From an uncultured Candidatus Peribacteria bacterium (GTDB lineage Bacteria; Patescibacteriota; Gracilibacteria; BD1-5; UBA6164), in NCBI GenBank assembly GCA_964586815.1, contig CAZPIB010000002.1:1-49298 (forward strand): a stretch of DNA of 49,298 nt. The letters are read 5' to 3'. Under the pieces are notes generated by a model. It saw only the letters and a list, made by a program, of their open reading frames with translations. It did no database searches and was not told where the DNA came from. Made by a program: the position numbers and the translations under genes. Positions 1 to 49,298 of this stretch are shown in pieces (the first letter of the stretch is position 1; every line of letters starts with the position of its first letter).

Positions 1-55
1 TTCAGTTTTAGGAGCTTCAGTTTTAGGAGCTTCAGTTTTAGGAGCTTCAGTTTTA
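1..55. repeat. Terminal redundancy: bases 1-55 are identical to 49244-49298. The block is 3.7 copies of the 15-bp unit ttcagttttaggagc.
   Basis: Direct comparison of the first and last lines of the window. The ORF crossing the junction is in frame only if an overlap of 10+15k nt is removed. Confidence 0.9.
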
Positions 56-162: not shown

Positions 163-3100
163 TTACCAAACTTTTCTTAGTCTTTTTTTCTTTTTAGGTT
201 CAAAAACTTTATTCCAATCTTCTAAATTATCTTTTTGATCTTCTGTTGTATGATTACTTCTTTTAACTAAGTTTCTTATCTTAGCAATATGTAATCCAAC
301 TAAAAAACTATTTGTAATATCATCTTTAAACATACTTTTCATAGCAAGCCTACCCTTATTATCTTCATCTTCATAGATAAAATTCATTTCTTCTAATAAA
401 TCTTTATTTGAGGTTTTTAAAACCTCAACTATTCATTCTTCCATAAAATCTACTGCATTTCATATTAATCTAGTTTTAGAGACTCTCCAATCTATCCCTT
501 TTGATGATTCTGTATCTCAAGAAGTATATCAGATTTTAATGAGTGTTTTATCTTTAAAAGTATGCTTAAATGCTTCATTGAATCATTCTCATACTCATCT
601 AATATCAACTCAATATACTATCTTTGGAAAACTTCAGAATTGTTTAATGATTGTTTTTTGATAATATGAGATTTGTGTACTCCATTGTTTTTTATGAGAT
701 TTAGGTACAAATCCAGATAAAATAACATATATCTTTCAGTTAATAATATATAGAACTGTAAAAGCACTTCTATCTGCTCAAGGTCTAGCTGGATCAAAAG
801 TAATAATAAAATATCACTCTTCTCAAATAATTGGATATGAACTGGTTTGTAATGGCTTAAAAAGAATATCATCTCAACTGTTCCAGCTACAAAACCATTG
901 CCTTTGATTTTTGGCTTTTGCTTGATTTTTCATAACTCTTTCTCTAAGCTTTGGATTAACTAGAGGATTTTGAGTAATATCAATTTGATAATAACTAACA
1001 TCTGGTAGTGATTCTGATTTAACTGCAATTTTAATTCATGCTAATTCAATTCCTTTTTTTGCCTCCATTATTAAATCATAATAATATCATTTAGCAGTTT
1101 TTCAAGGAGTTCAAATTAAAATCATTCTTCAATTAGTTGTAGCAAGAGTTGGTTCAAGTACTTCTTCAAAAACATAATCACTAATTAATTGAGCCTCATC
1201 AATAATGATATTACTTAAAGTTAATCATAGTACATTTTCAGCATCTCAATCTAGTGTTCTAAAATAGATCTTAGTTCAACTTTTTGTATTTAAAATATAT
1301 CATTCAGATTTAAAGTGAGTAAATATCCCATCATCAAATTTATTAATAAACTTCAACATATAATTTCTAATTACATCTGTGGTTTTTTTAATATATCATC
1401 CAACTAAAGTATCTTCATTTGGTAGAAAACTTAATTCAACTGCTTTTTCAGCTATTGTCAAAGAATTATGAGTCAATATTCAGTTAGAAAAATATAATTC
1501 ATCATCTGATTTTACCGCTATAGTTACAACTTTTTCTTCTCAAATATATTCTATGTTTTTTATTTTAACCCAAAGATAATCTAACCAACTTTCTAAATTA
1601 TCTCAAATAAAGTGTTTTGATTTTATTTTTCTTCTTTGAAAAGGATAAGATGGCTTCTTATTGGTTCTACTAGTATTGGTTATATTATTGACTGCATCTA
1701 ATGGTATTAATGAAACTTTTCAATTAGTTTGAATGTTGTTATCTGTTAATCTTGCTTTAAATTTTGTATAATTTAATTTTGTAGTTATATCTATTTTTGA
1801 ATCTAATAAAATAAGACTCTCTTTGTTAGTTATATATAAATAATAAGCAAATTCTCTATGTTTTTTAAAATTACTTCTTATTTTTTTAGTTCTTATAGCA
1901 CAGATAACCCCTAACTTTAATAATAATAATTGAAGTTGAATAATTAATTGTTTCGAAGTAGAACAATATTCAATACTAGCTGCTCTATTATTAGATATAG
2001 ATAAATATGCATCAGTGTTAAATATTCATTCAAGAAAAGCCCATTGATTAATATTACTTGTTAAAAATACTTTATTGTCTATAAATTTTTCATAAGAATA
2101 TAAATCCACTCAATTAAAATTAGTCCTTTGTTTATATTTTTCAATATTATAAATATTTGATGTTCATTTTAAATTTGAAGTAATTTTATATTCAGAGATA
2201 ATATCTTTTAGTCTATTATGGTTTCAAGAAATTTGATTAGTTTTCCTGCATCAATCTCAAATAAAGTATCAAAGAAGCATAAAATCTTCTCTTGTGTGTG
2301 TTTCTTTTTTATTATCATTGTATCAAAAAGAGTAATTAAATGCTGTAGGAATGAATAAGTTAGCTTCTCTTTGTAGCCTTTCTTGTATTTTTCTTTCAGG
2401 AAGTGTTCTATTCTTATTTAATCTTCTGTTTTCTTTTAATATATCTAATTCTTTATTTAAATTAATGAATTTTTCAAATAAAGATTTAGCATTTATATAA
2501 TGTTCTTTATTATTTAATTTATTTGCATCCCATTTTTCTCAATTAAAATTATGAGAAAGTGGTATTCTATGTTCTTCAGATATTGTATGTTCCATTCAAT
2601 TTTCTAAAGTAATCTTATAACTTGGTTTTTTTGAATAAGAAAGTTGTGTGATTTCAGTAAATTTATAATTACTTCACAATATTTTATCTCATACCTTTAC
2701 GTGTTGGGCTTCTTTATATCAATAATCTTGACAGAATACCTTTTGGTTGTATAGTACACTTTTACCTAGTTGTCTACTTCAATCAAGTAAGATTATTGGA
2801 GAATCATCCTGTAGTAGAGTATCTTGCCATTTTATATAGACTTGTTTAGTTCCCCATTTTGGCACAACATAAGGGGAGTATCAAGTTATCTTTCTTATTG
2901 CATCTCTTGAAATTGTTAAAACTTTCTTTTTCTTTTTATTTTTATTTTTATTTTGTTCTGGTTTTTGAATTGTAGGTCTTTCAGTCTGAATAAAAGTATT
3001 ATTTCTTCAGTCTTTTTTAACTAACCATAATTTAAGTTCATCAATTTTATAATAATATCATTTAAAGAAATAGAAATTATTGTATTGTGATCTTGTTTTT

Positions 3101-3342
3101 TCAGAAATGATTTTATTATAGTATTCATGTTTAGAATATAATTCTATCATTTTTATGGTATGCTCTTGTTGTTTTGTTATATCAGTAAAAATCATAGCAT
3201 TATCAATATTCTCAAAATGAAATTCAAAAGGCAAAGTAAAATACCTAAGATTTTTCCATTTCTTAGGTTCTGCTTCTGGTATTAAATCCTCCTGAGCTGG
3301 ATTGAATGTTCAATTTTTAACTAGCCAATATTTATCTATCAT
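163..3342 (-). CDS. terL: Terminase large subunit, 1059 aa as a precursor, interrupted by an intein.
   Basis: The frame was hand-scanned and contains no TAA or TAG. Walker A is ILLDGSRQLGK/S, Walker B is NIIIDEAQ and the coupling motif is MILIGTPG, with both Gly of LIGTPG encoded by TGA. The ATG overlaps the stop of the upstream ORF. Confidence 0.85.
1465..2760 (-). mobile_element. Intein of 432 aa with a LAGLIDADG homing-endonuclease domain, inserted in the TerL P-loop.
   Basis: The N-terminus is SVLYNQKV directly after GSRQLGK. Block B is ISEEHRI. The LAGLIDADG motifs are LLGYFIGDGC and FLEGIFNTDAYLS. The C-terminus is FSNGILTHN followed by Ser. The spliced extein restores GSRQLGKSLTIAEKAV. 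Confidence 0.8.
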
Positions 3343-4229: not shown

Positions 4230-4315
4230 TTATAATTATCAATTAAATCTATAAGGTCATAGTATGTATTTTTAACTAAAAAGCAAATCTTTTGTTAACT
4301 TTTTGTTCTTTTTTT

Positions 4316-4536
4316 GTGTAATTTATATAGTTTATAATCAAATGTCATTATGTTTGGTGAAAATGATGGATTTGTGTGGTTTGTATAATTTATATAATTT
4401 GTATTCAAATGTCATTGTGTTTGGTGAAAATGATGGATTTGTGTAATTTATATAGTTTATAATCAAATGTCATTGTGTTTGATTATAATTTGTATTCAAA
4501 TGTCATTATGTTTGGTGAAAATGATGGATTTGTGTG
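4316..4536. repeat. Nested tandem repeat array. The core caaatgtcattRtgtttg occurs four times and ggtgaaaatgatggatttgtgt three times.
   Basis: Cores start at 4339, 4406, 4464 and 4497. The intervening segments are themselves repeated. Confidence 0.85.
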
Positions 4537-4537
4537 A

Positions 4538-4556
4538 GGGGGACTTACGACCCCCC
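4538..4556. other. GC-only hairpin (GGGGG-acttacga-CCCCCC) followed by ACCA.
   Basis: Read directly from the sequence. It is conspicuous in an AT-rich non-coding region, immediately after the repeat array. Confidence 0.6.
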
Positions 4557-4898
4557 ACCATAAAACAAAAAAGTGCTATACCCTTTGTGTTTATGTTTAT
4601 ATATAAATATAATCATTATAATTAAAAAGCCTTTAAAATATTAAGTTTTAAACTTTAATATTGTGGGGTAGTTTATTTTTTAAAAAGATGTGGGGTATGA
4701 AGCTGTATTTTCTATTAAAATTAAAGAGTATATAAAACTGTATATATTCATATATACTTAAGTATATAAAAACTGTATATAAAAGCGCAAAAAATGTACA
4801 AAAAGTTAACAAAAGCCAAAAAGCACAAAAAGCACAAAAAGTTAACAAAATGATAACAAAAAGCGCAAAAAGTTAACAAAATGATAACAAAAAGGCTT

Positions 4899-4948
4899 AA
4901 AAAAAAAATAAAAAAAAATAAAAAAAAATGAAAAAAAATGGAAAAAAA
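4899..4948. repeat. Five phased A-tracts (A7-A10) spaced about 10-11 bp apart, predicted to bend the DNA intrinsically.
   Basis: The sequence is aaaaaaaaaataaaaaaaaataaaaaaaaatgaaaaaaaatggaaaaaaac, directly upstream of a -35 box. Confidence 0.7.
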
Positions 4949-4949
4949 C

Positions 4950-4978
4950 TTGACAAAATACCTTAAAAACATTATAAA
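4950..4978 (+). promoter_or_regulatory. Sigma-70-like promoter, TTGACA-17 nt-TATAAA.
   Basis: TTGACA lies at 4950-4955 and TATAAA at 4973-4978. A-tracts lie upstream, and the operator-like inverted repeat starts about 17 nt downstream. Confidence 0.5.
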
Positions 4979-5480
4979 ATAAAAATTGTTATCATTTTGT
5001 TAACTTTTTGTACATTTTGCTTATAGTTATTTCAAAAGTTCTATGAATAGATCAACATTTTCAATTTTGACCCTATATATATTTATTTTTTTTCCTATAT
5101 AACCAAAAAAACACCCCTTCACAAATTAAACTATATCAATAAAAAAATAATTACATTCTATTCATAGTAGTTTCAAAATAACTATGAGCAAAAAGCGCAA
5201 AAAGTTAACAAAAAGTTAACAAAAAAAAAATAATAACATAAAAAAAATAAATGTAAAGAAAAAAAAAAAAAATGTTATTTTTTTGTTAACACTGTTTGTC
5301 TCTATTTAAAGGCATCTTGAGCCTTTTTGTACATTTTTTGTACTTTTTGTTAACTTTTTGTACATTTTGCTTTTTTATCTTTTTTTATAAAAATATATAC
5401 TTTCAGTAATAATAATAAATAAAAAAGTCTAAAAATCTTTTGACTTTTGTTTGCAAAAGAATATACTTAAGATAGTTAAT

Positions 5481-6921: not shown

Positions 6922-7209
6922 ATGAATAAAACATATATAGTAAAATATAAAAATTGATTATTAAAATATTACTCAATACATTTTTTTAAAAATAGGTACA
7001 ATTTTATGAATACCTATTTTAGTGAACATCAAAAACAACAAAATTGAATAATAAAAATAAAAACAATAAATGAAGAAATATTTAAATTTTGAAAAAGACT
7101 TAATAAATCTATATGTAATATTGTGGCTGATAGTAATTGAGCAATTTTAAGAGAAGAATATAATAAGTATGAGCAGAATATTTTAAATTTTATATTATAT
7201 ACAAAATAA
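6922..7209 (+). CDS. Hypothetical early protein (95 aa).
   Basis: It has the ATTATG start context, four in-frame TGA and a TAA stop. Confidence 0.55.
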
Positions 7210-7250
7210 AAAGAAATCGATTTTAATTTAATAATAAAAAATAAACAATT

Positions 7251-7643
7251 ATGAAAAATTTAAAAAAATACATAAACTGAATCATTATTTCTCTTATAGT
7301 GATACTTTTAATATGAATGAGTATGTTCATACTAAAACAAAATAAAAGCATTGCACAAGCTAATGTAAATATAATTCAATTAGAGTATGATATAAATAAT
7401 AAATCAGATATAGAAATATTAGAAAACTTAGCATCAAAAGCTAATACATCTAATATAAATTATCTAAATAAAATAAATAATTATAAAAAAACAATTAAAA
7501 AATTAGAGATAAAATTTGAAACATCAATACTTAAAGAGAGATGCTTTAAGGCACAAATAAATAGAAAAATAGAATGATTAGAATATAATTATAATCATTG
7601 TAAAGAGATAAAAAATCTAAATCAATTTAGATTAAAAAAATAA
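7251..7643 (+). CDS. Membrane-anchored coiled-coil protein (130 aa). It may be the N-terminal part of a frameshift fusion with the downstream lysozyme.
   Basis: The N-terminus has the hydrophobic helix IIISLIVILLIGMSMFIL. The ORF ends AAA AAA TAA inside an A7 run. Confidence 0.6.
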
Positions 7644-7684
7644 CAGGGGAAAAAACTCACCCCTTAGTTAAAGATGAGCAGTCG

Positions 7685-8116
7685 GTGACTAAAAAATCAC
7701 CTAACTGGAAGTATGAAGCTATATACTTCATACAAAATTGAAGAGGTAACTTTACTGGAGAATGATTTTCTGCTTACTGCAAGCGGGATAACAAGCAAAA
7801 CTCTTGGGGTCATTGAACCAAATGCAAAAACATTTGAGACAAAATAACACAAGAGCAAGCAGACTTAGAATTCCATAACCACCTTGTGCATATTTTTGAG
7901 CTAGTTGATAATTCAACTTGTTTCACTGACAATCAAAAAATAGCTTTAACAAGCTATATATATAATACCTGAGGTAATCAACTTAACCTCAGGAAACATA
8001 TACATAGATGCTCTCATAAAGACATAAGATACATTATGTCTATATGGGGCTGGAATAAAGAATTCCCTTGATTAAAACACAGAAGAATAGCTGAATTATA
8101 TTTATACGCTTTATAG
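7685..8116 (+). CDS. Glycoside hydrolase family 24 (T4/P22-type) lysozyme. As annotated it is 143 aa from a GTG start.
   Basis: The motifs are TGEGFSAYCKRD, SWGHG, ITQEQADLEF, FTDNQKIALTSYIYNTGG and GLKHRRIAELYLY, and several Gly are TGA. There is no ATG in the frame, which is open from 7631. Confidence 0.75.
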
Positions 8117-8147
8117 AGTAGATTTTAAATTAATAACCTTAAAACAA

Positions 8148-8498
8148 ATGCAAGAATTTAAAAAAGTAACCGATCCAAATAATTTTAAATGAAGTTGAAA
8201 AATGGGAAGTTTAGAAATAGATTATTTAGATTTAGTAGACAAAATTTGAGAACCTTTCAAATATACAGAAAATAATTTTCCAGATGATAAAAATAAAGTA
8301 CAGGTATGCTGGGGATTTAATAAGCAAAATGAAGCAGAACAAAATATTAATATAGCTATATGGGATTATAAAAGTTATGCTGATGATTTAGCAGAAATAA
8401 AACAGTTTAGTTTTTATGCTCCAACAGATAGACACTTACAAGAATTTTTAAAACAATATGATTTAGAAAATTATTTAGTAGAGAATTATTTAATTTAA
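8148..8498 (+). CDS. Hypothetical protein (116 aa).
   Basis: The ORF is open with TGA=Gly and has a TAA stop. Confidence 0.55.
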
Positions 8499-18802: not shown

Positions 18803-21800
18803 ATGAATACTATATCAAAATTTACCATTAATCCTCTATCGAAAAAATATTCTTCTGATGAAATGGAATTCATTGATGAATTAAATCTATCAAAAGAAAT
18901 ATGATATGAATTTCCTCATTATTATTCTGATAATACAATTACTGGATATAGAGCAGCAATAATTAAGTGTGATGAAGTGGATGTTGATTACATAGAGCAA
19001 ATATATAAATTAAAACCAAATAAGATTTATTGCCATAAAAATGTAAGGCATTTAGTTTTCTATTTTAAAAATAGTCTTAATAAATATGACTATAATAGAA
19101 TTACAAAAGCATTAGGTTTCTTATATAAATGAAAAGCTATTAATTATCATTTTTATCCATTAAATGGAGTAATTGAAGAGTTTTCTTCAGGAGAACTAAA
19201 CAAGTCATTATCTGATACTTGTACAAAACTATATTTTTTCCAACAACAAAGTATAAAATATCAAAAACTTTTTACAATTAGTGAATTTGATAAATATCTT
19301 GAAGTTGAGAAACTTAAGATAAAAGAAGTTGTAATAGCTTTATATAAAAAAGAGCCAGCAGTAATTCCAGATATTTTAAAATTAATTGATATTAGAAATA
19401 ATATTCATAAAGAATATTGAAATGCTTTTTCTTTTGTTCATCATTATTATTCTAGTATTGAAAAAGCTAAACAATTTTTTAAAAATGATTTTAAGATTTG
19501 ATTTGAAGAAACCAACTCTTTTGATTTTACTAAAGCAAAAGAATGAATAGTAATAAAAGAAGGAGAAAACTTATTTTTAAGTGAATTTTGATATTTTTCA
19601 CTTGATCCATCTGGAAATAATAAAAGATTAACTGATTTTTATATAAAAGTTCATGCAAAAATAGTATGAAAAGACTGAAAACATTTTTTTGTTGTTACTT
19701 TAGTTAACCAATGAGAATGAACTGAAACCAAGAAAATGATATGGGAAAATAAAACTTCTGGAACTACATTTTCTGATTTTATCCAATCTTATTGACCTTA
19801 TCATTATTATGGATGACCAGCTTTTATTAAAGAATTACATAGGCAAATATCTTCAACTAAGCAAATTTCAACAATTCAACAAGTAGTCTGATATTGACAT
19901 CATAAATCTGAATGAATAATTATTTTTAAAAATTGAATATGGGATATAAAAGAAAGATTATTCACAAAAAAGAAAGATAATGATGATGATTATTATTATA
20001 ATTATGATAGTAAATGATATTGGGTTACAGATAAGGGTTGAAATTCATTAACAGAAGTTCTATCTACTTGAGTGCCTAATTTGAATATTGAAGGAGTTGT
20101 TGAGATGGGTGATATTCTTGATTTTATGTCAGAATTATATGCTGATAATTCTTGAAGTTACTTAGTATTTTTAGCATTTGGGATGATGGGGTATCTTACA
20201 TATTGAGATTCAACAAAACCTTTCCCACTAGTATTTACTAGATGAGTAACTTGATGTGTAGATTCAGAAACTGAATACTTAACACCAACTTGATGGAAAT
20301 ATATTAAAGATTATCAAGAATGAGATATAATTTGAGAATTTAATAAAGATACTTGAAAATGTATTTTTAACAAACCATTAGATTATATTAAAGAAAAAGA
20401 TAATAGATTAGCATACAGAATTAAAACTAAAAATATAGATATGCTTCTAACAGAAGAGCATAGATTATTATCACAATCACAAAGAGATGTTTATTCTACT
20501 ACTCAATTATGAGAAGTTGTTTCTGATTTAGAATTACATAAGCACCATAAAACAAATAAATATAATATTCCTGTTGTTTTTGATATTGAAGACAAAATAG
20601 GAATAGATTTATCTGATGTAGAATTACAATTAATGGTGGCAGTTATAGCTAATTGAAGTTTTCCTAAAAAAAATGTTTGATGAAGGTGATGAGAGTATAT
20701 ATCCTATATTAAGATAAAAAAAGAAAATAAAAAAAAGAGACTAAGGGAAATATTGAATAAAACTGATATTTTTGTAGAAGAAAAGAATAATCCCGAATGA
20801 TATACTACTTTCAAATTTGATGCACCAAGAAAAGATAAGGTGTTTTCTAAATATTATTGGGGTGCTAGTAAATCTCAATTAAAAATAATTGCTGAGGAAG
20901 TAAGTTATTGGGATTGAAGTGTAGATAGAAAAGAAAGTGCTGACTTTGTTCAATATGCTTTACTTATAACTAATCAAAGTAATGATATAGAGATTATATC
21001 AACTCAACAAAAAAAGAAATCTACCAGAATAGAATATAAAGATATTGTTAGAGAACAACTTACTGATTGAAATAAATATTGTTTTACAACTAATACAAGC
21101 TATTGGGTAGCTAGAAGAAAATGAAAAATTTTTATAACGTGAAATAGTTGAAAATCTACTTTTAATGAATTACTTCAAAGAGTTTGGGGAATTAAAAAGG
21201 CTGGTACAGATTTTGAAAACTCTACACTTTTTACGATGACAGTAACATTATCTTATTTGATAAAGTTCCCATATTTTATTGCAGAATATAGAGAATCAGC
21301 AAATCAAAGATTACAGAAAGTAGGAACTTTAAGAAGTGTATTTGATAAAATTTCTCAAACTAAAGGTAGAGCAGACCAGTCTGTTGTGAAATATGATTAT
21401 TTTGCTACACCAGTATTAGATTGAGAAGAAATGATAACTGATCCTGCATTAAGGACAAGAAGCTTACAATTACAATTATTAAAAAAACATAAAATTCAAT
21501 GAAACTTCTCAAAAATTTTAAGAGAATGATGATCTATTTTAGATAAATTAATGTTTACTTATTTATCTAAAAGTACTTGAGATAAATACCAAGACTATTT
21601 AGATGAATGATATGATTTTTTTAAAAAACAAACTAGTCAAAATAGAATAGCTCAAAATGTTGCAAGTATTTATGCTTGATGTATGGCATTTAATTCAGAA
21701 AAAGATAATGAAGATCAATATAAAATGGTATTATCTGAAATAATACTTTTCCAAGAAGAGGATGTTTCAGAAAATTCTAATCAAATGCAAATCATTAAAT

Positions 21801-22105
21801 TAATTTCTAAATTTATGGAGTCTTCTTACAATTGAATATATCCATTAAAAGACAGGGTTGTTATTAGTTGGAATGCTTTTGAGGAATATGTGAGTAGACA
21901 TAGACTAAAAACAACGTTAAAAATAGACACATATAAAGAACATTTAATGATAAGGGATTTTAATATAGAATTTATTGAGGTTTGAATTGAGTGATGATTA
22001 GTTGAGTGAATTATTATTCCTTATAAATTAATCCCCAAAAATTTATTAGTCCACACAGAAACATATAAATTTTATAAGGATTGGAAAAATTTATCTTCTA
22101 ATTAA
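18803..22105 (+). CDS. Large replication ATPase, primase/helicase-like with a P-loop (D5/P4-like). The precursor is 1100 aa and is interrupted by an intein.
   Basis: The whole frame was hand-scanned and contains no TAA or TAG. The P-loop is split as FTRGVTG / SGKSTFNELL, and splicing restores GVTGSGKST. Confidence 0.7.
20255..21145 (+). mobile_element. Intein of 297 aa with a LAGLIDADG-like endonuclease region, inserted in the Walker A loop of the replication ATPase.
   Basis: The N-terminus is CVDSETEYLTPTGW and block B is LLTEEHRLL. The endonuclease-like motifs are LMVAVIANGSF and IIAEEVSYWDGSV. The C-terminus is YWVARRKGKIFITGN followed by Ser. The penultimate residue is Gly (TGA) rather than the usual His. 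Confidence 0.7.
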
Positions 22106-29014: not shown

Positions 29015-31018
29015 TTAATATGAAGTTGTTGGATATGAAGATTGATACACTGGTCTTTGTGCATCTGGCTGATCATTTGCTTTAGTTAAAATTGTGCGTC
29101 ATTCATTTCTCATCCATGTTTGCCAAGCTAAATAATCTTCATGACTATATCAATCTGGATTTATACCATTGGCTAGTAATATGTTTATTTGAGCGGCTCT
29201 TAATCCAGTTTTTTTAGTTCAACTTCAAGAACTTCTTGGAGTGGCTCTTAATATTGCAACTTTATGCTCTAATTGTCTTTGTAGTTCAGCAGCTTTTTCA
29301 ACATCTGCAACTGCTTTATATAATTCAGAATTTTCATTTCCTAAATCTGCAATCATTTCTTTTAATGCTTCAACTGAATTTAAATTATCAAGATATTTCT
29401 CCATAACCACTTGAGCAGTTCCACTTATTCCAAGTTGAGTAATAAATTTTGAAACTGTATTTATAACTTCAGCTTTATTGTTATCTTTATCTTGAATATT
29501 TGCTCTTGCAATTTTAAAGGTATTTGTAATAAAATTATCTTTAAAGGCTCTAATATTAGTTTGTGTTAATTGTCTTGTTTTTTCAATAGCTATATTAAAT
29601 TCATTTTCATTTAATATTCATTCTTTTTGTAATCCTAATAATACTTTTTCAGATTCTTGCCCAACTTCTAATATTTTATTTTCCATATCAGTTGTTGCTT
29701 CATTTATTTTTTCTAATGCTTGACTTCATAGTTCTCCACTCATTGCAAGTAATTGTTCTGGTGGAATGTTTCCTATATTAATTCATCTCCTAGCTAACAG
29801 CGCTCTAATTCTACCAGTAATTTTATTCAATTCAGTAGTTTTAGTTCTTTCTAATGCTTTTAATGAAGCTTCTCTCATTTCTTCTAATAAGATCTTGTTT
29901 CTTTTTATGGATTCAGATAAAAAAGATTGCATTCTCTCTTCGTTATTTCATAGAACCATTAAAGTTCTATTATAATTTTCATTTGCTTTCATTATTTTAT
30001 CTTCCATTGTTTCTTTTTCTATATCTATTTGTTTTTTATTTAAATCTTCTACCTTTTTTTCTTTGGTTATAATTGTAGAATCAAGAGTGTTTGTTCAATC
30101 TTGAAATGGATTATCCTTAAGGAATCATTTTGCTTTTATATATTCTTTTGAGTCTTTTCAAAATTTTGCTTCTACTCTAGATAGTAAATCTGAATCAGTT
30201 TTCCCAGACAATCTTAATTCTTGTAATTTATCAATATGTTTTTTATTTTGTTCCTGAGCTGTTAATCTTTTTACAGGCTTAACTCTTTTAAATGTATTCT
30301 TTTTAGTTTGATTGGCTATTGTATTCTTTTCTATTGTATTTTTTTCTACCTTTTTTGAAGGAATATTGTTGTTTTCTCTAATTTTTCTTCTAAGTAAAAT
30401 ATTTTGTCTAGCAGTTCAAGTATAGTTTTTTATTCAATGTTTTTTAGCAGCTCACATTCTTTCTGGACTATTCCATTTTTTTGAAAAAATAACTTTTTCA
30501 TTAATTTTTGGTTTATTCCTTTTAAAATCATTTTCTATGTTTCTTTTATTTGAAGTTGTATTGTTTTCTCTGACTCTCTTAACTTCAAGCTTTTCATTTT
30601 TTTGAACATATGCTCTAATTTTTCTAACTTGTGGACTATTTGCCCCATATTTCCTCGCTGCAATATTAATAATATTTTTTCAGATATTAAATTTTTTAAC
30701 TGCTGCTGTGTTGTTTTTGATTCTATCAATTCCAGCTCTAACTCTAGATTTTACTCTAGATCTAAATGTATTTGTTTGAGTAGGTCTTGAGCTAGTAGGT
30801 CTTGAGCTAGTAGGTCTTGAGCTAGATGGTCTTGAGCTAGATGGTCTTGAGCTAGATGGTCTTGAGCTAGATGGTCTTGAACGAGATGGCATATATCCCC
30901 CTCTTCTTAATGCTGCACGAAGTTTTCTCTTAGCAGTTTTACTTCAATGAGAAGCTTTTATTTTTTTAAAAGCTGCTCTAACTCTAGTTTTTTGTGAATT
31001 AGATAATTTTTTAACCAT
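29015..31018 (-). CDS. Large basic, coiled-coil protein (667 aa) with unknown function, probably virion-associated.
   Basis: The frame was hand-scanned and is open. It contains track ORFs 29225-29410 and 30680-30892 and an (SRP[ST]SS)x6 repeat near the N-terminus. Confidence 0.7.
30780..30889. repeat. An 18-bp coding tandem repeat of about six units, encoding SRPSSS/SRPTSS.
   Basis: The unit ggtcttgagctag(a/t)(t/a)g is reiterated. Confidence 0.85.
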
Positions 31019-31163: not shown

Positions 31164-31191
31164 AATAAAAAAAGCCCTATTTATAAGGCTT
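31164..31191 (-). terminator. Weak intrinsic terminator after the methyltransferase gene.
   Basis: On the minus strand AAGCC-10 nt-GGCTT is followed by T8. The stem is only 5 bp. Confidence 0.4.
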
Positions 31192-33373
31192 ATTTAAGTA
31201 AATTATCAAATATAGCTTTTACTACAGGTACACTTACTGCATTACCTGCTTGTTTATATGCTTGTGAATTACTCATAAATTCAGTAGACCAGTTATCAGG
31301 GAAGCCCTGTAATCTTGCACACTCTACAGGTGTTAATTTTCTTATTATAAAATCGTCTAAAACTACCCCGTCTACTCCTGCTACTGTTAAAGTTCCACTT
31401 ATTCACTCTTTAATTCTGCTTCTTTTTGTTATACTTTTTGGATTATCTAAAATAACACCGTCCCCTATTTTAGCCTCAGCATATCATTTTTTAGTCCCAT
31501 TGTTTAATTTTATAAATTCATATATCTTTGGTCTATTTCAACCATCTCCAGCTGTTAGAGTTGGTACTAATCAATCCATACCAATAAAAATATTATCCTG
31601 ACTAAAATTACAAAAACTAGGATCCTTTAAATTTACTTGTAGTTTTATTTGTTTGGAATCTCTTGGAGTTATTTTATTATAAATTCTTTTTAAACTATCA
31701 AAACTTAATTTTTTATATTGTTCTTCGGTCATAAAAAATTTACTATCTACTTCTTTTTCTAAAATATCTTTTAAGAAAATATTTAATTCTTTACCTTCTG
31801 GGAAGTTGAAATAATCTAAAGTTCCCACACCTAATTTTCAAACTATAAAAACCCTTTGTCTATTTTGTGGCAATCAAAAATCTTTTGTATTTAAAACTTG
31901 AAATTTTACATCATAACCAGCATCTTTTATTCTATCTAAAATACTTTCAAAAAATCATTTGAATTTTTTATTTAAAAGCCCTTTTACATTTTCAAAAATA
32001 AAATATTGTGGTTGTTTTGTTTCTAAAATCTGTAATAAATATTCAACTAGTATAGTTCTTCAACCTTCCTTTAGGTTTTGTTTTCACGCTACACTAACAT
32101 CCTGACAATTATGTACAATGCAATTGTTTGCTGTGTAAGAATTATCATTTTCAACTTCTATATTATAAACAGTATTTGTTTCTTCTAAATATTCTTTTGA
32201 TTTAAAAGGTAGCCACATATATCAATTTATATTAATTCAATTGTCTTGTGTTTTTTTTTCGAACTTAATATCTAATGAATAAGTATCCCTCTGGTTAACT
32301 TCTCTTCATTCAATAATTGTTTTAGGTTTTCTTTTTGTATAATATACAGATGTAGGAGTTCAATATACTTTATGAACTAATTGTTGTATTCATAATATAA
32401 GTTTTTTTGATACAGATGAAACACGGTAATATCACTTATCCTTATAATAGTGTCAATCTCAGTCTATATATCATATTAATAATTGCTCTAAGTATTCTTT
32501 ATTTAATCACATTATTGATGTTGGTATAAATTTTCAATAACTGTATTTTCAAAATTGTTCCATATACTCCACAAATTCTTTATTTGCAATATAATATTTT
32601 AAAACAGTTCTGTCATCTACTTTTGAATAATTAAATAATCACTCTAGTAATTCTTCTACTTCTTTGTATTGATTTTTATTACAACACAATACTACTCTGT
32701 GTGATTTACGCTGTATATTTGGTCATCTACTATAACTACCCCACCATCCATCTGCTAGAAGCCTTCAAACTAATTTGTAAAATTTTAAACTTTTATCAGA
32801 ACATTCTGTAAGATCATCTTGAATGTTAAATCATATAAAATCTCATTTATTTAAATCTTCTACATTTTTCCACTTCGGTTCACTAAAAACTCTTTCATAT
32901 TTTCTAATTGAATTATTCCACTTTTTAGTCATTTCCCTTACATAATATGGATGCTCATTTGTTACAAAAGTTTCTAATGCTCCCTGTATTTTAACATTAT
33001 AAATTCATTTTTTATTTGGAGTTACAAAATGCCTTAATACTTTTTGATATTTATTTGTGTGTGTTAATACATAATCTCAAACTTCCATATTTTTAATATC
33101 TTTATATCACTTTTGTGTTAATACCATTGTTCATTCTTTAAAACAAGGAAATCCACCAGTTAATAAATCAAAATCAGGTAAATTTTCTATATCTATTTTT
33201 GTTATATCTCATAAATCAGGACTAGTTGCAAAATGTTCTTTATAAACTATTTTAGCAAATTTATCTATTTCGCTAAAGCCTATACATTCAATATTTTCTT
33301 TACCTATACTTTTCTCTAAGGCTAAATGAAAACCACCTATACCAGAAAAGGTATCTAAAAATTTCATAATCAT
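31190..33373 (-). CDS. DNA (cytosine-5) methyltransferase. The precursor is 727 aa and is interrupted by an intein at the catalytic Cys.
   Basis: The frame was hand-scanned and is open. Motif I is FLDTFSGIGGFHLAL. Motif IV is split as LLTGGFP / CQDVSVAGKQ. Further motifs are ENVKGL, QNRQRVFIVG, RKLTPVECARLQGFPDNW and AGNAVSVPV. Confidence 0.85.
32108..33145 (-). mobile_element. Intein of 346 aa with a LAGLIDADG homing endonuclease, inserted between Pro and the catalytic Cys of methyltransferase motif IV.
   Basis: The N-terminus is CFKEGTMVLT and block B is VTNEHPYYV. The LAGLIDADG motifs are LVGRLLADGWWG and LLIGYIDGDGHY. The C-terminus is TANNCIVHN followed by Cys. Confidence 0.8.
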
Positions 33374-34021: not shown

Positions 34022-34522
34022 TTATATTTTTCTATTAACAATTATTTCTATACAAGCCACAGCTTCATCAGCTGTACCAGTTCTAATTGTTTTTATTAAA
34101 TTAGTTGGATTATTAATAACTGATTGACCAGCTATTTTTCTATATTTACCTGTTTGTTTATAGGGTTTTTGATTACATTGAAAATGAGGTAAATCTCTAC
34201 CCCATAAATCATACCCCCAATCTATTCAATAAGAGTTAGCTATTTTTCATATCTCTTTCCAGAGTTTTAAATTATTAGGATATAGAGTTTTTCATTTAAA
34301 AGCTATATCAAAAGCTAATCCCTTAGTATGCATTGAATTTCTAGTCCAGGTTATTATAGAACCTGGTCTAGTTCTTCATTGAGTGAAGAGAAAGTTCTGT
34401 CTTGCTTGACTTCTATAAGCTTCTGTAATGAAAATTCTATCTCAAGTTTCTTTTAAAAAATCAATAACTTTAAGCCTAAAATTAGACTCTAAATTATTGA
34501 TATTTCTGTCTGCTTTTTTCAT
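34022..34522 (-). CDS. Peptidase M15 (VanY / L-Ala-D-Glu endopeptidase type) cell-wall hydrolase (166 aa).
   Basis: The motifs are ITEAYRSQARQ, SMHTKGLAFD, YGIDWGYDLWG and DLPHF. Confidence 0.75.
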
Positions 34523-35539: not shown

Positions 35540-35950
35540 TTATTTTTTTTTAAAATATAAAAATCAAAACAGTCTAACTGCTGACCATATAATCCAACTC
35601 TTAATCTTTCAGGCTCCCTCAACCTGAATAGCTTCTTTAAAGATGTTATCAGAGTGAAGCCTTGTAGGTCTTATAATCTCACACTCATTTTCAATAAGAA
35701 TTTTAGATTTCTTAGAATAAAGAAAGTCGTGTAAAATATATCAGATATAATGAGTAGGAGAAAATATAGCTTGCATAAATCTAGGGATAGAACCAAAGTC
35801 AGTTATAAATCACTTGGGAACAAGAATGTAAATATTTTTATTGTTAAAGTTTAAATACCGTACAAATTCTTCCATAACCATAAAATCTTTTTTAGTTCAA
35901 TTTACCTTTGATAAAAGTAAATTATTCTTACTTGCTTGAGTATAGTTCAT
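35540..35950 (-). CDS. DUF1353-like phage protein (136 aa).
   Basis: The motifs are VPKGFITDFGSIPRF and YILHDFLY. Confidence 0.6.
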
Positions 35951-38417: not shown

Positions 38418-40253
38418 TTAAGAGATATTAATTAAACAACTGAAATCTGAACCAGCTACTGCACTTCAAACTTGTGTTATTTTTAATGTAAATACATCTG
38501 TATTTACTAAAGCTGTTGCTATATTTAGATTTGCTATATGCCTGCCATTTATAGCAATTCATCACCCATTAATTATACTTATATCTTTATTTAGACTAAT
38601 TCAGTTTTTATAGCATTTAACTATAAAATTAGCACCAGTATTTGCAACTTGTAAGGCTATTTTTATATTTCATACTGTTTTATTTCAGTCAGCTATATAC
38701 TCAAAGAATTCAGTTCAAGCTATTTGTGGTCAAGCTATTTTAACTGTTTCTATTCATCAGCCTCCTCATCAGGCATTATCATCTACATATTTTTTAGTAG
38801 CAGGATGATAATTTGTTGTTGGAATAAAACTTGTTGTATTATTTTTTTCTAATACATTAGTCTTATCTGCTTTAGTGTTATCTGATGGAGGTGTATAATT
38901 TCACTCTAACATAGTTCCAGCAGTAGTTCAAAACTGTAATTTATTTTTAATAAAAGTATCTAATGTATTATTTATCTCATTAAAATCAGATTGTACATTA
39001 GCTTTTGCATTATTTTCAATGGTTCATAATTTAGTTTTCTCTATATTTGTAAATTTTTCTCAATCAAGATTGATTATTGGATTCGCTGGATCTAAATTAT
39101 TAATAGTTATGTTACTTCATCAGACTATTGATGATATGGTTCAACTTCAATTTGTTACTGTGAAAGTTGAAGTAGTTCCATTTTGATATGTAATTGTGTA
39201 AGTATCTATAAGTCAAACAGTTCAAGTTTTTGTTGTACTAACAATTCAACTTCAATTTGTTATTGTATATGTTGTGTTTGTTCAATCTGTGAAGTTAATT
39301 TGATAAGTATCTATAAGTCAAGTAGTATTTATCTTTACAATATTAATAATTCAACTTCAATTTGTTATTGTATATGTTGTGTTTGTTCAATCTGTGAAAT
39401 TAATCTGATAAGTATCTATAAGTCAAGTAGTATTTATTTTTACAATATTAGCAATTCAATTTCAATTTGTTACTGTGAAAGTTGAAGTAGTTCCATTTTG
39501 ATATGTAATTGTGTAAGTATCTACAAGTCAAGCAGTTCAAGTTTTTACTATATTGGAAATTCAATTTCAATTTGTTATTGTGAAAATTGAAGTAGTTCCA
39601 TCTGTATAAGTGATAGTATAAGTATCAACAATTCAAGTAGTTCAAGTTTTTGTTATGCTTTCAATAAAATTTCAAATAAATAATCAGTGATGTCTATACT
39701 CTATTTTAGAAATAAGGGAACTTACAACAGTAACCTCAGCAGTAATTATTCCTTTTTCAGTAGTAGCTGTATTCTCATTAGTTGTGGATTTTATTGTATT
39801 TGTATTAAGTTTATAATATATATAATTAATTCAGTTAGATAATATTAAATCTTGATCCATTACTTCTATTGTTTCTATTCATTTAGCTATTGGTCATCAT
39901 AAAACTCTTATCTCTACATTTCATAATTGTTCAATAAAAAATGTTGTACTATTTAATTTAGATAAATAGTTGAAAACTAAAGAAGTATCATTGATTTGTA
40001 CTTTTTCTGTACTAAGATGTGATTTAGGCTCAATCCTATCATTTCATCTTACATAAATAGAGTTTCAAACAACTTTATTATAAAACATTTTTTCTCTATT
40101 TAAAATGTTGTCTGGATCTACAATAATAAATCATTTTTGATGTTGTGGTACTTGAGTTACAATTAAAATAATATCTCAACTATCTGCTAAGTTATTTGTT
40201 AATTCTGTTTGGTAAAAATCTTCTACAAGAATATTTTTAGTTGTTTTTGACAT
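38418..40253 (-). CDS. Tail fibre protein (611 aa) with five 35-aa tandem domains.
   Basis: The frame was hand-scanned and is open. It contains the repeat G-I-x-N-I-V-K-T-G-T-x-G-L-(V/I)-D-T-Y-x-I-x-(Y/F)-x-(D/N)-G-T-x-(S/T)-x-(F/Y)-T-(V/I)-T-N-G, the fibre motif HPATKKYVDDN, and a GGGGGG linker encoded tga tga gga ggc tga tga. Confidence 0.75.
39130..39655. repeat. A 105-bp coding tandem repeat of five units inside the tail fibre gene.
   Basis: The units at about 39246-39350 and 39351-39455 are nearly identical. The flanking units are more diverged. Confidence 0.8.
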
Positions 40254-48904: not shown

Positions 48905-49298
48905 TTAAATCTTTGAAATAACTTCATTTATTAATCCTTGTAATTTAATCTTGAAAGGATTACTATCTGGAATTTCTTTTTTAGCCTCTTCAAGTAAAGT
49001 TAAAAGTTTAGATTTTTTAGGAGTTTCTTTTTTTACTATATTTTTATCTGGCTCTGGAGAAAATTTTAATGCCTCATCAGTATCAATAAATTCTAAATAA
49101 CCTTTTTTCATTTTTGGATTAATAATAGTTCCATCAATTCTTTTAACTCTCACAGAAAAAGTTTCTTTAATTATTCCTCATTTTTCATTTGTAATTTTTT
49201 TCCCAATTTCATCTCAATTAATATCTAAAATGATAAAATCTTTTTCAGTTTTAGGAGCTTCAGTTTTAGGAGCTTCAGTTTTAGGAGCTTCAGTTTTA
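48905..49298 (-). CDS. 3' part of the junction-spanning ORF (see 1-72).
   Basis: The track ORF 48905-49153 extends upstream through two TGA into the APKTE repeat. Confidence 0.6.
49244..49298. repeat. Terminal redundancy copy, identical to 1-55.
   Basis: Direct comparison of the two ends. Confidence 0.9.

Follow-up and report, generated by a model that had tools for sequence, protein, structure and literature searches.

The Escherichia coli dnaX gene yields two products with a common N terminus, tau and gamma, by means of a Lys-Lys heptamer (A AAA AAG), a downstream stem-loop and a nearby stop codon (review PMC5009743). We describe a similar arrangement at positions 7251-8116 of contig CAZPIB010000002.1 (assembly GCA_964586815.1), a stretch of 49,298 bases with 24.8% GC that was analysed at its full length and is called the window here. 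An open reading frame (ORF) for a small membrane protein, the anchor, ends in a run of seven A residues (A7), and a GH24 lysozyme follows in the -1 frame. We consider it probable, from comparison with related sequences, that this cassette is a site of programmed -1 ribosomal frameshifting, a "shifty stop" with a hairpin, and that two proteins would be made from one message. Like dnaX, the locus has a Lys heptamer of the X XXY YYZ type that is followed by a stem-loop and by a stop no more than a codon or two away. Unlike dnaX, where the shift truncates the protein, the shift would here extend it into a catalytic domain; moreover, no upstream Shine-Dalgarno (SD) stimulator is visible, the spacer is shorter, and genetic code 25 is in use.

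Three other recoding systems offer close comparisons. Lambda gpG and gpGT are short and long products with a common N-terminal module, made in a fixed ratio, and their downstream module varies between phages. The cassette resembles them in being a phage element conserved by position and frame, not by sequence; it differs in that the lambda site is G GGA AAG, does not require a hairpin, and serves tail assembly. The insertion sequences IS911 and IS150 make OrfA and OrfAB with a heptamer A AAA AAG or A AAA AAA and a 3' structure. As in the OrfA/OrfAB pairs of the IS3 family, whose transposases are listed as frameshifted (PRFect paper, PMC10885494), a short 0-frame product would be accompanied by a -1 fusion that adds a catalytic domain. 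The proteins and the biology are unrelated, a cell-wall hydrolase in one case and a transposase in the other. Frameshifting at a "shifty stop" was reportedly described by Weiss et al. in 1987, and in Bacillus subtilis cdd a -1 shift occurs at A AAG, tRNA-Lys slipping on A AAG or A AAA before a stop. The stop likewise follows the Lys codon directly in 9 of the 13 family members considered below. Whereas those shifts are low-level or SD-stimulated, the conserved companion of the slip site is here a downstream hairpin.

Membrane-held lysozymes are known from the signal-anchor-release (SAR), or signal-anchored, endolysins such as P1 Lyz and phage 21 R, which are of the GH24 type, owe their export to an N-terminal membrane segment and not to a holin, and are held at the membrane. 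SAR domains are weakly hydrophobic, rich in Gly and Ala, and adjoin the catalytic domain in one ORF. The cassette is predicted to give a membrane-inserted lysozyme too, but we rejected its identification as an SAR endolysin: the transmembrane (TM) helices of the anchors are strongly hydrophobic (Kyte-Doolittle values of 2.2-2.9, with 2-6 G+A+S+T residues of 19), a helical stalk of ~100 aa separates the TM helix from the lysozyme, which lies in the other frame, and more than 130 residues lead up to the catalytic Glu. In the lambda Rz i-spanin, an N-terminal TM segment precedes ~100 aa of helical, extracytoplasmic structure, and there are conserved cysteines. The anchor is predicted to be similar in these three features and, unlike Rz, matches no family in sequence or fold. 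No lipoprotein partner of the i-spanin type was seen, with no systematic search made for one. Several lysis products from one stretch of sequence are also known from phi vML3, where "two overlapping genes" encode a lysin and a holin-like protein (PMC3111421), and from MS2, whose L protein depends for its expression on ribosomes that have frameshifted in the coat gene (PMC3111421; references in PMC5009743). The cassette would resemble these, Ms6 lysA/lysin241 and lambda Rz/Rz1 in this respect; unlike it, those systems use internal starts, embedded frames or reinitiation and produce separate proteins, and none of them joins a membrane anchor to the enzyme across two frames. A full-text literature search found no endolysin made by programmed frameshift fusion to a membrane anchor, and the papers on code-25 phages contained no mention of frameshifting or lysozymes. 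The mechanism itself, in which a hairpin and a close-by stop accompany a -1 slip on a Lys heptamer, is textbook material; a lysin made in this way is apparently unpublished, as we found none.

The two reading frames and their junction

The anchor ORF begins with the ATG at 7251 and has 130 codons (7251-7643, + strand); it is preceded by an AT-rich conserved leader, TTTTAATTTAATAATAAAAAATAAACAATT (7221-7250, +), and ends in NLNQFRLKK. Its last codons read TTA AAA AAA TAA. The heptamer A AAA AAA (7634-7640, +) is in X XXY YYZ register and is the proposed site of the -1 shift, and the 0-frame stop TAA (7641-7643, +) lies directly 3' of it as the "shifty stop". A GC-rich hairpin follows (7645-7664, +), with a core of AGGGG (7645-7649) and CCCCT (7660-7664), a loop of 10 nt and no T-run after it. 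RNAfold lengthens the stem by UAAC/GUUA to 7641-7670 (-8.0 kcal/mol); counted in base pairs, the stem has five, or nine with a bulge. The strong G-C pairs start 5 nt past the heptamer.

The -1 frame is open from 7631 to 8116. Past the putative shift it encodes a linker beginning ITGEKTHPLVK and the GH24 lysozyme, with a stop at 8114-8116 (segment 7640-8116, +). The Phage_lysozyme domain (PF00959) occupies 7760-8095 (+), residues 44-155 of the frame opening at 7631, and is matched over profile positions 4-125 of 125 (E 1.1e-9, 39.1 bits against a cut-off of 22.3); PHROG endolysin families match as well. The catalytic Glu codon is at 7760-7762 and the Asp follows nine residues later, within TGEGFSAYCKRD, a spacing that we take to be the E11/D20 pattern of T4 lysozyme. 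Both residues are invariant in the family alignment. The only ATG, GTG or TTG of the lysozyme frame ahead of this Glu is a GTG at 7685-7687 (+), which is not conserved and lacks the usual leader.

The anchor has a single N-terminal TM helix, GIIISLIVILLIGMSMFIL (residues 10-28; 7278-7334, +), with a 19-residue Kyte-Doolittle maximum of 2.90. The three Lys residues ahead of it suggest an N-in/C-out topology, and the anchors of L001, L006, L007 and L008, the relatives that with the window make up a close group, have the same N-terminal feature. An AF2 model built on the family alignment (pLDDT 94) predicts helices at 3-49, which includes the TM segment, and at 53-107, with a short C-terminal cap; its input consisted of database translations of homologues, in which Trp stands at three TGA positions. 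For the anchor, no relative was found in Pfam, in PHROG or among PDB folds, and it represents, as far as sequence and predicted fold indicate, an uncharacterised protein family. When the L001 anchor was used as the query, exhaustive searching with HMMER gave 35 cluster representatives at 50% identity. These proteins of 37-175 aa align to the last residue, and all stop at most one residue from a conserved Lys, ending in NL(E/D)x(F/Y)(R/K)xKK(Y) or in FRTVK or FKTAK. Cys98 (codon 7542-7544, +) and Cys117 (codon 7599-7601, +) are invariant in 32 of the cluster representatives; the family also keeps a KSDIE(I/L)LE motif, and its terminal Lys is at least 90% conserved.

All the elements on which the proposed shift depends (A7, stop, hairpin, open -1 frame, GTG and TM helix) had been pointed out in a preliminary description of the window, and all are present. 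Its statement that the lysozyme has no ATG and only a GTG without the ATTATG leader is correct for the window. It had further proposed that a -1 shift would give a membrane-tethered lysozyme of about 290 aa; the computed fusion has 288 aa, and the proposal gains support from the conservation of this layout in 13 of 13 genomes.

Under programmed frameshifting, ribosomes would start at the ATG at 7251 and synthesise a type-II (N-in) anchor whose stalk is long and helical. Most would terminate at the TAA at 7641 and release the 130-aa anchor, and a fraction would slip back one base on A AAA AAA, where tRNA-Lys could re-pair perfectly with AAA in the -1 frame. The slip may occur in tandem in the P and A sites, or in the P site while the slowly decoded stop occupies the A site; the two modes are equally possible in A7 members of the family. 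A GC-rich hairpin at the mRNA entrance of the ribosome may favour it, judging from general knowledge of -1 stimulators. Shifted ribosomes would read ATA ACA GGG and onward, through the short linker into the GH24 domain, to give an anchor-stalk-lysozyme fusion with FRLKKITGEK, NLNQFRLKKITGEKTHPLVK, as its junction peptide. If the TM helix is a Sec-type signal anchor, the fusion would hold the lysozyme outside the membrane on its helical stalk with no need of a holin. The common stalk would let the short and long products co-assemble in a ratio set by the shift frequency, and the invariant cysteines may stabilise or regulate the assembly. We infer the slip, its frequency, the topology, the co-assembly and the role in lysis from sequence.

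Within the window, the fold downstream of 7634-7640 is the most stable among all 35 in-register A_AAA_AAA heptamers inside genes, and the hairpin is within the best 2% of local 50-nt windows. No Rfam match exists at 7200-8200. Two other roles for the structure were considered and rejected. A pseudoknot between the loop and a downstream segment (CUC with an invariant GAG) would have only three pairs. The GAGGU in the hairpin of the relatives could be read as an SD sequence; however, no gene in the window uses one, and most relatives have no start following it.

Conservation of the junction among relatives

The comparison set consists of the window and 12 relatives, of which L001 and L005-L008 were found earlier (L007 and L008 are the same contigs as L011 and L012) and L133-L139 came from a wider search. 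Junction DNA thereby covers 7 of the 35 anchor-family clusters (L133-L139) in addition to L001 and L005-L008. The close-group relatives were recovered by both protein and DNA-motif searches. Anchors of the 12 relatives are 24-48% identical to that of the window (31-45% in the close group), and the close-group lysozymes are 51-58% identical to that of the window (50-58% among relatives) and keep the catalytic Glu and Asp. The flanking genes are mostly unrelated. A junction pattern, CARTTYARRNNAAAAAAATA, had more than 120 chance matches in IMG/VR, and the sole lysozyme-encoding one was L012; a lysozyme-motif DNA pattern returned only the L008 contig again from that database. Back-translated patterns, which cannot match Gly encoded by TGA, gave no related loci in IMG/VR. 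Two scans of GTDB genomes with the lysozyme-motif pattern gave no match and so no prophage or host.

In all 13 genomes the hydrolase ORF lies in the -1 frame, is open across the junction, and is adjacent to a homologous anchor. The probability that 12 further hydrolases would all be in the -1 frame by chance is ~2e-6. Every genome has a slip motif in register, which is A_AAA_AAA in seven genomes, A_AAA_AAG in two, A_AAG in three and G_GGT_TTA in one, and in each case it falls at the last or penultimate sense codon, with zero codons before the 0-frame stop in nine genomes and one codon in four. The window, L007 and L008 read NNA AAA AAA followed by TAA or TAG, and L001 and L006 read NNA AAA AAA TAC TAG. 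The remaining A-run members end in ACA AAA AAA TAC TAG (L136), GAA AAA AAA TAG (L139), AGA AAA AAG TAG (L137) and TTA AAA AAG TAA (L138), and the A_AAG members in TCT GTA AAG TAA (L134), ACA GTA AAG TAA (L135) and ACA GTA AAG CAC TAA (L133). The amino acid ahead of the Lys varies (L, T, V, R or E), yet its codon ends in A in 12 of 12 cases (p ~6e-4, given the codon usage of this genome). L005 ends in G GGT TTA TAT TAG, which contains another classical heptamer, in register and within the frame overlap. Its slip site appears to have moved in evolution with the -1 layout kept. An A8 run also occurs in L005, inside the lysozyme frame and 18 nt past the 0-frame stop (4956-5001).

Protein similarity is unbroken over the junction. 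Close-group anchors end in QF(R/K)xKK, and the junction consensus, with a hyphen at the shift, is NL(N/D)QFRxKK-I..(E/V)K(T/D)xPL; the window has NLNQFRLKK-ITGEKTHPLVK where L001 has NLDQFRTKK-ILEVKTQPLVK. Conservation of the -1 frame peptide sets in with the very first codon past the shift, and a Val codon in the hairpin loop varies synonymously (GTG, GTT or GTA) in that frame. In a codon alignment of five fusions (322 codons), the 9-codon stretch over the slip site is the maximum of nucleotide identity (0.84; the mean is 0.57). Of its synonymous pairs, 85% are identical, against 56% overall.

Conservation of the heptamer and hairpin in related genomes had been proposed as a check on frameshifting. 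The heptamer, its adjoining stop and a hairpin at the same position proved to be conserved. The hairpin is present in all five close-group genomes (-7.8 to -13.3 kcal/mol, z down to -5.5), with eight base pairs in L001 and L006 (CTAGAGGT/ACCTCTAG), seven in L007 and ten in L008 (TAATAGAGGT/ACCTCTATTA). Two pairs show compensatory changes, from A-U to G-C in the window and from C-G to A-U in L008, and 82% of cells in the five sequences are paired, against 36-60% for slid controls. The relatives have longer stems, which start 0-3 nt past the heptamer and have their G-C-rich pairs at 5-8 nt. Stems of unrelated sequence occur at the same position in L134 (GGTACAG/CTGTACC), L135 (GGTTGAG/CTCAACC) and L137. 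Nine of 12 junctions lie within the best 8% of local 50-nt folds, and the combined evidence for downstream structure is significant (Fisher p 1.6e-6 for 12 junctions, or 8e-4 if the clade with the shared hairpin is counted once).

The module after the anchor is GH24 in most members. L135 has a -1 module with a weak glucosaminidase-like match (L135:1716-2117), and L136 and L139 have a common unrecognised domain with FLAE(S/N) and G(M/I)CQ(T/I)N motifs (L136:1569-2072, L139:996-1388). No Pfam, PHROG or PDB match was found for this domain, and its resemblance to a lytic transglycosylase was seen by eye only. As far as these sequences indicate, one catalytic module can replace another without loss of the junction. 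In P0002 and P0003, two more distant lysozyme relatives, one ORF encodes TM helix, linker and the same lysozyme together, which shows that this group does use membrane anchoring of the enzyme.

Frameshifting and its alternatives

The junctions combine a -1 ORF that has no conserved start, a slippery motif in register, a stimulator, and conservation beyond coding needs, which are the features by which frameshift sites are recognised. Several observations weigh against this interpretation. In-register A_AAA_AAA is depleted, not rare, inside the genes of the window (35 occurrences where ~59 would be expected), and a heptamer so frequent in genes is therefore not highly shift-prone on its own. The preliminary description had called the hairpin of the window conspicuous. 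This holds insofar as there are only six GC-rich hairpins of the kind in 49 kb and no T-run follows, but not by comparison with shuffled sequences, against which it is marginal (z -1.3 to -1.6). It has only five GC-rich pairs, and a 4-nt spacer is short by the standard of known stimulators. The covariation consists of two compensatory pairs in five close sequences, a level that 68 of 500 shuffles reach, and significant downstream structure is absent in L138 and L005. A possible start of the hydrolase's own exists as an ATG in L006, L133 and L135 and as a GTG in the window, L001 and L005, and independent or dual expression of the hydrolase is possible in these members. Taken alone, the window is only suggestive; the comparative data put the combination of features beyond chance.

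Two ordinary adjacent genes offer an explanation that we consider improbable. The lysozyme would then be translated from the GTG at 7685, from a non-canonical codon, or by reinitiation after the TAA at 7641, and the A-run and hairpin would be incidental or related to coupling. It is in favour of this explanation that the GTG is in frame, that gene callers gave stand-alone lysozymes (with GTG starts in L001 and L005 and ATG starts in L006, L133 and L135), and that the heptamer is common in this genome. However, upstream of the catalytic Glu the lysozyme frames of L007 and L008 lack ATG, GTG and TTG altogether, and the candidate starts of the window, L001 and L006 each lie at a different position and lack the genome's usual leader. 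Separate genes are also at odds with the -1 placement and open junction of all 13 hydrolase ORFs, with the conserved peptide between the slip site and the candidate starts and its synonymous variation in the -1 frame, and with the A at the end of the codon before the Lys. Homologous lysozymes that begin at the GTG, behind an unrelated upstream ORF, had been named beforehand as one of two outcomes that would refute frameshifting, the other being reads with A8. Neither was encountered. All 12 relatives have a homologous ORF directly upstream, the GTG is not conserved, and the contigs covering the A-run show no A8 there. Initiation at the hydrolase itself may contribute where an ATG lies near the domain (L006, L133 and L135).

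Transcriptional slippage would have the polymerase add one A at A7, so that part of the mRNAs would carry A8 and an in-frame fusion; we regard this as quite improbable. Bacterial polymerases usually slip on longer runs than A7. Such slippage on A runs is established as an alternative to frameshifting, as in Thermus dnaX (review PMC5009743). It would have the identical protein outcome and fits the A7 members, and 9 of 13 junctions have a run of 6-8 A. The homopolymer is not conserved as a run across the family, however. L133-L135 (GTA AAG) and L005 (G GGT TTA) have none and still keep the -1 layout. The strict X XXY YYZ register and the adjacent stop matter to ribosomes and not to polymerases, and the conserved downstream RNA hairpin is a ribosomal stimulator. 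Because the A_AAG members lack a homopolymer, a ribosomal slip covers the whole family and polymerase slippage does not.

Phase variation at the DNA level, in which the A tract would be a contingency locus switched by replication slippage between A8 (on) and A7 (off), is very unlikely. Homopolymeric tracts can act in this way, and contigs cannot reveal minority variants, but every A-run member has the "off" length and none the "on" length, and the four A_AAG and G_GGT_TTA members have no tract. The length of the A-run was judged from assembler contigs; one of these, with a depth of 108 in a third vent metagenome, belongs to a strain variant. It spans 7552-7788 and has A7, no indel and 11 substitutions, none of which falls within 7614-7722. 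An assembly or sequencing error that conceals a true A8 fusion gene, or a decaying pseudogene, is scarcely credible: homopolymers are error-prone and one extra A would fuse the frames, but 13 assemblies, made independently in different projects and with junctions that differ in sequence, all show the break, the lysozyme retains its catalytic residues and its similarity among relatives, and the single missing A allowed for in the preliminary description is excluded by the variant contig and by the finding of in-frame anchor-hydrolase fusions in 0 of 35 anchor-family clusters.

Genome setting and significance of the cassette

The anchor-lysozyme locus belongs to a phage genome that uses code 25, with TGA read as Gly. 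ORFs across the window are short with translation table 11 and long when TGA is sense, and we rejected table-11 ORF calling, as the codon statistics favour code 25. This assignment follows from the codon shares in ten long ORFs, where TGA makes up 4.8%, all four GGN codons together 2.4% and TGG 0.7%, and from TGA at Gly positions of the LFDGMSGG motif of a C5-methylase and the DTETTG motif of a DnaQ-type exonuclease. The anchor ORF has three in-frame TGA codons and the lysozyme six, and both ORFs exist only if TGA is sense. Code 25 is the code of Absconditabacteria, Gracilibacteria and many of their phages (PMC10746230). Pfam matches in the window include SU10-like portal, major capsid and adaptor proteins, as well as Peptidase_M15, two C5 methylases, a DnaG zinc ribbon, a helicase, an exonuclease and inteins. 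A 15-nt tandem repeat, TTCAGTTTTAGGAGC, is present in 3.7 copies and is identical at both ends of the window (1-55 and 49244-49298). Because the ends share this array, the window is probably a complete phage genome of ~49.2 kb that closes circularly or is terminally redundant. The terminal repeat lies inside an ORF that runs off the window end and encodes KTEAPKTEAP repeats.

No tRNA genes and no SD-like leader at any gene were found in the window. Many + strand genes are instead preceded by a leader, TTTAATTTAATAATAAAAAA, then ~8 nt, then ATTATG (upstream of 5905, 6344, 6922, 7251, 8517, 8996, 13154 and others), and about one third of all gene starts have ATTATG. This leader could be a promoter or a translation signal of a non-SD type. 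The gene at 35540-35950 (-) ends in AAA AAA AAA TAA (A9 and a stop), superficially like the anchor ORF; a frameshift is not implied there, as the next gene has its own ATTATG start.

The segment 4230-5615 is gene-poor and dense in repeats and separates divergent - and + gene blocks. It contains a 67-nt unit in 2.8 copies (4313-4481), a GC hairpin GGGGGAC..GACCCCC (4538-4556) and 11/31-nt iterons of the ACAAAAAG type (4781-4958), and it could serve as an origin of replication or as a control region. A terminase-like gene (163-3342, -) and a C5 cytosine methylase (31190-33373, -) each contain an intein with a LAGLIDADG endonuclease domain, inserted in the methylase at the catalytic PC motif. A third Hint-like insertion was suspected by eye in the 1100-aa replication protein at 18803-22105 (+), where Pfam gave no match. 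Two further repeat arrays are coding: a 15-nt unit in seven copies (30783-30889, -) encodes SSSRP repeats of a 667-aa protein, and a 105-nt unit in 4.9 copies (39140-39651, -) encodes 35-aa repeats of a 611-aa tail-fibre-like protein.

A second wall hydrolase, of the Peptidase_M15_4/VanY-like type, is encoded in the late structural block (34022-34522, -), and the anchor-lysozyme locus is at the start of the + strand block with the replication genes. The phage thus carries two different wall-degrading enzymes in two transcription blocks. The anchor-lysozyme may be the main lysin or have another role, in wall remodelling.

A broader proposal, which we put forward tentatively as a possibility, is that the cassette represents an unrecognised lysis or wall-remodelling device of code-25 candidate-phyla phages. 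In such a device the anchor with its Cys pair would be made in excess, and a small fraction, set by recoding, would carry an exchangeable head (GH24, glucosaminidase-like or the unrecognised domain). The two would co-assemble into a tethered complex independent of holin, with timing and dose set by termination versus slippage at the "shifty stop" in hosts that maybe rely on a single release factor, as TGA is sense.

If programmed frameshifting operates at this locus, it would be a new way to export and dose an endolysin. The conservation of frame and position in at least 13 very divergent uncultivated phages provides an annotation rule, which is useful because current gene callers split the cassette and invent starts. 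Unless it models the shift, endolysin mining in such phages would overlook 130 residues at the N terminus. Translation in Absconditabacteria/Gracilibacteria-type hosts has received little study, and the cassette also gives a clear candidate for a recoding site in their code-25 phages.

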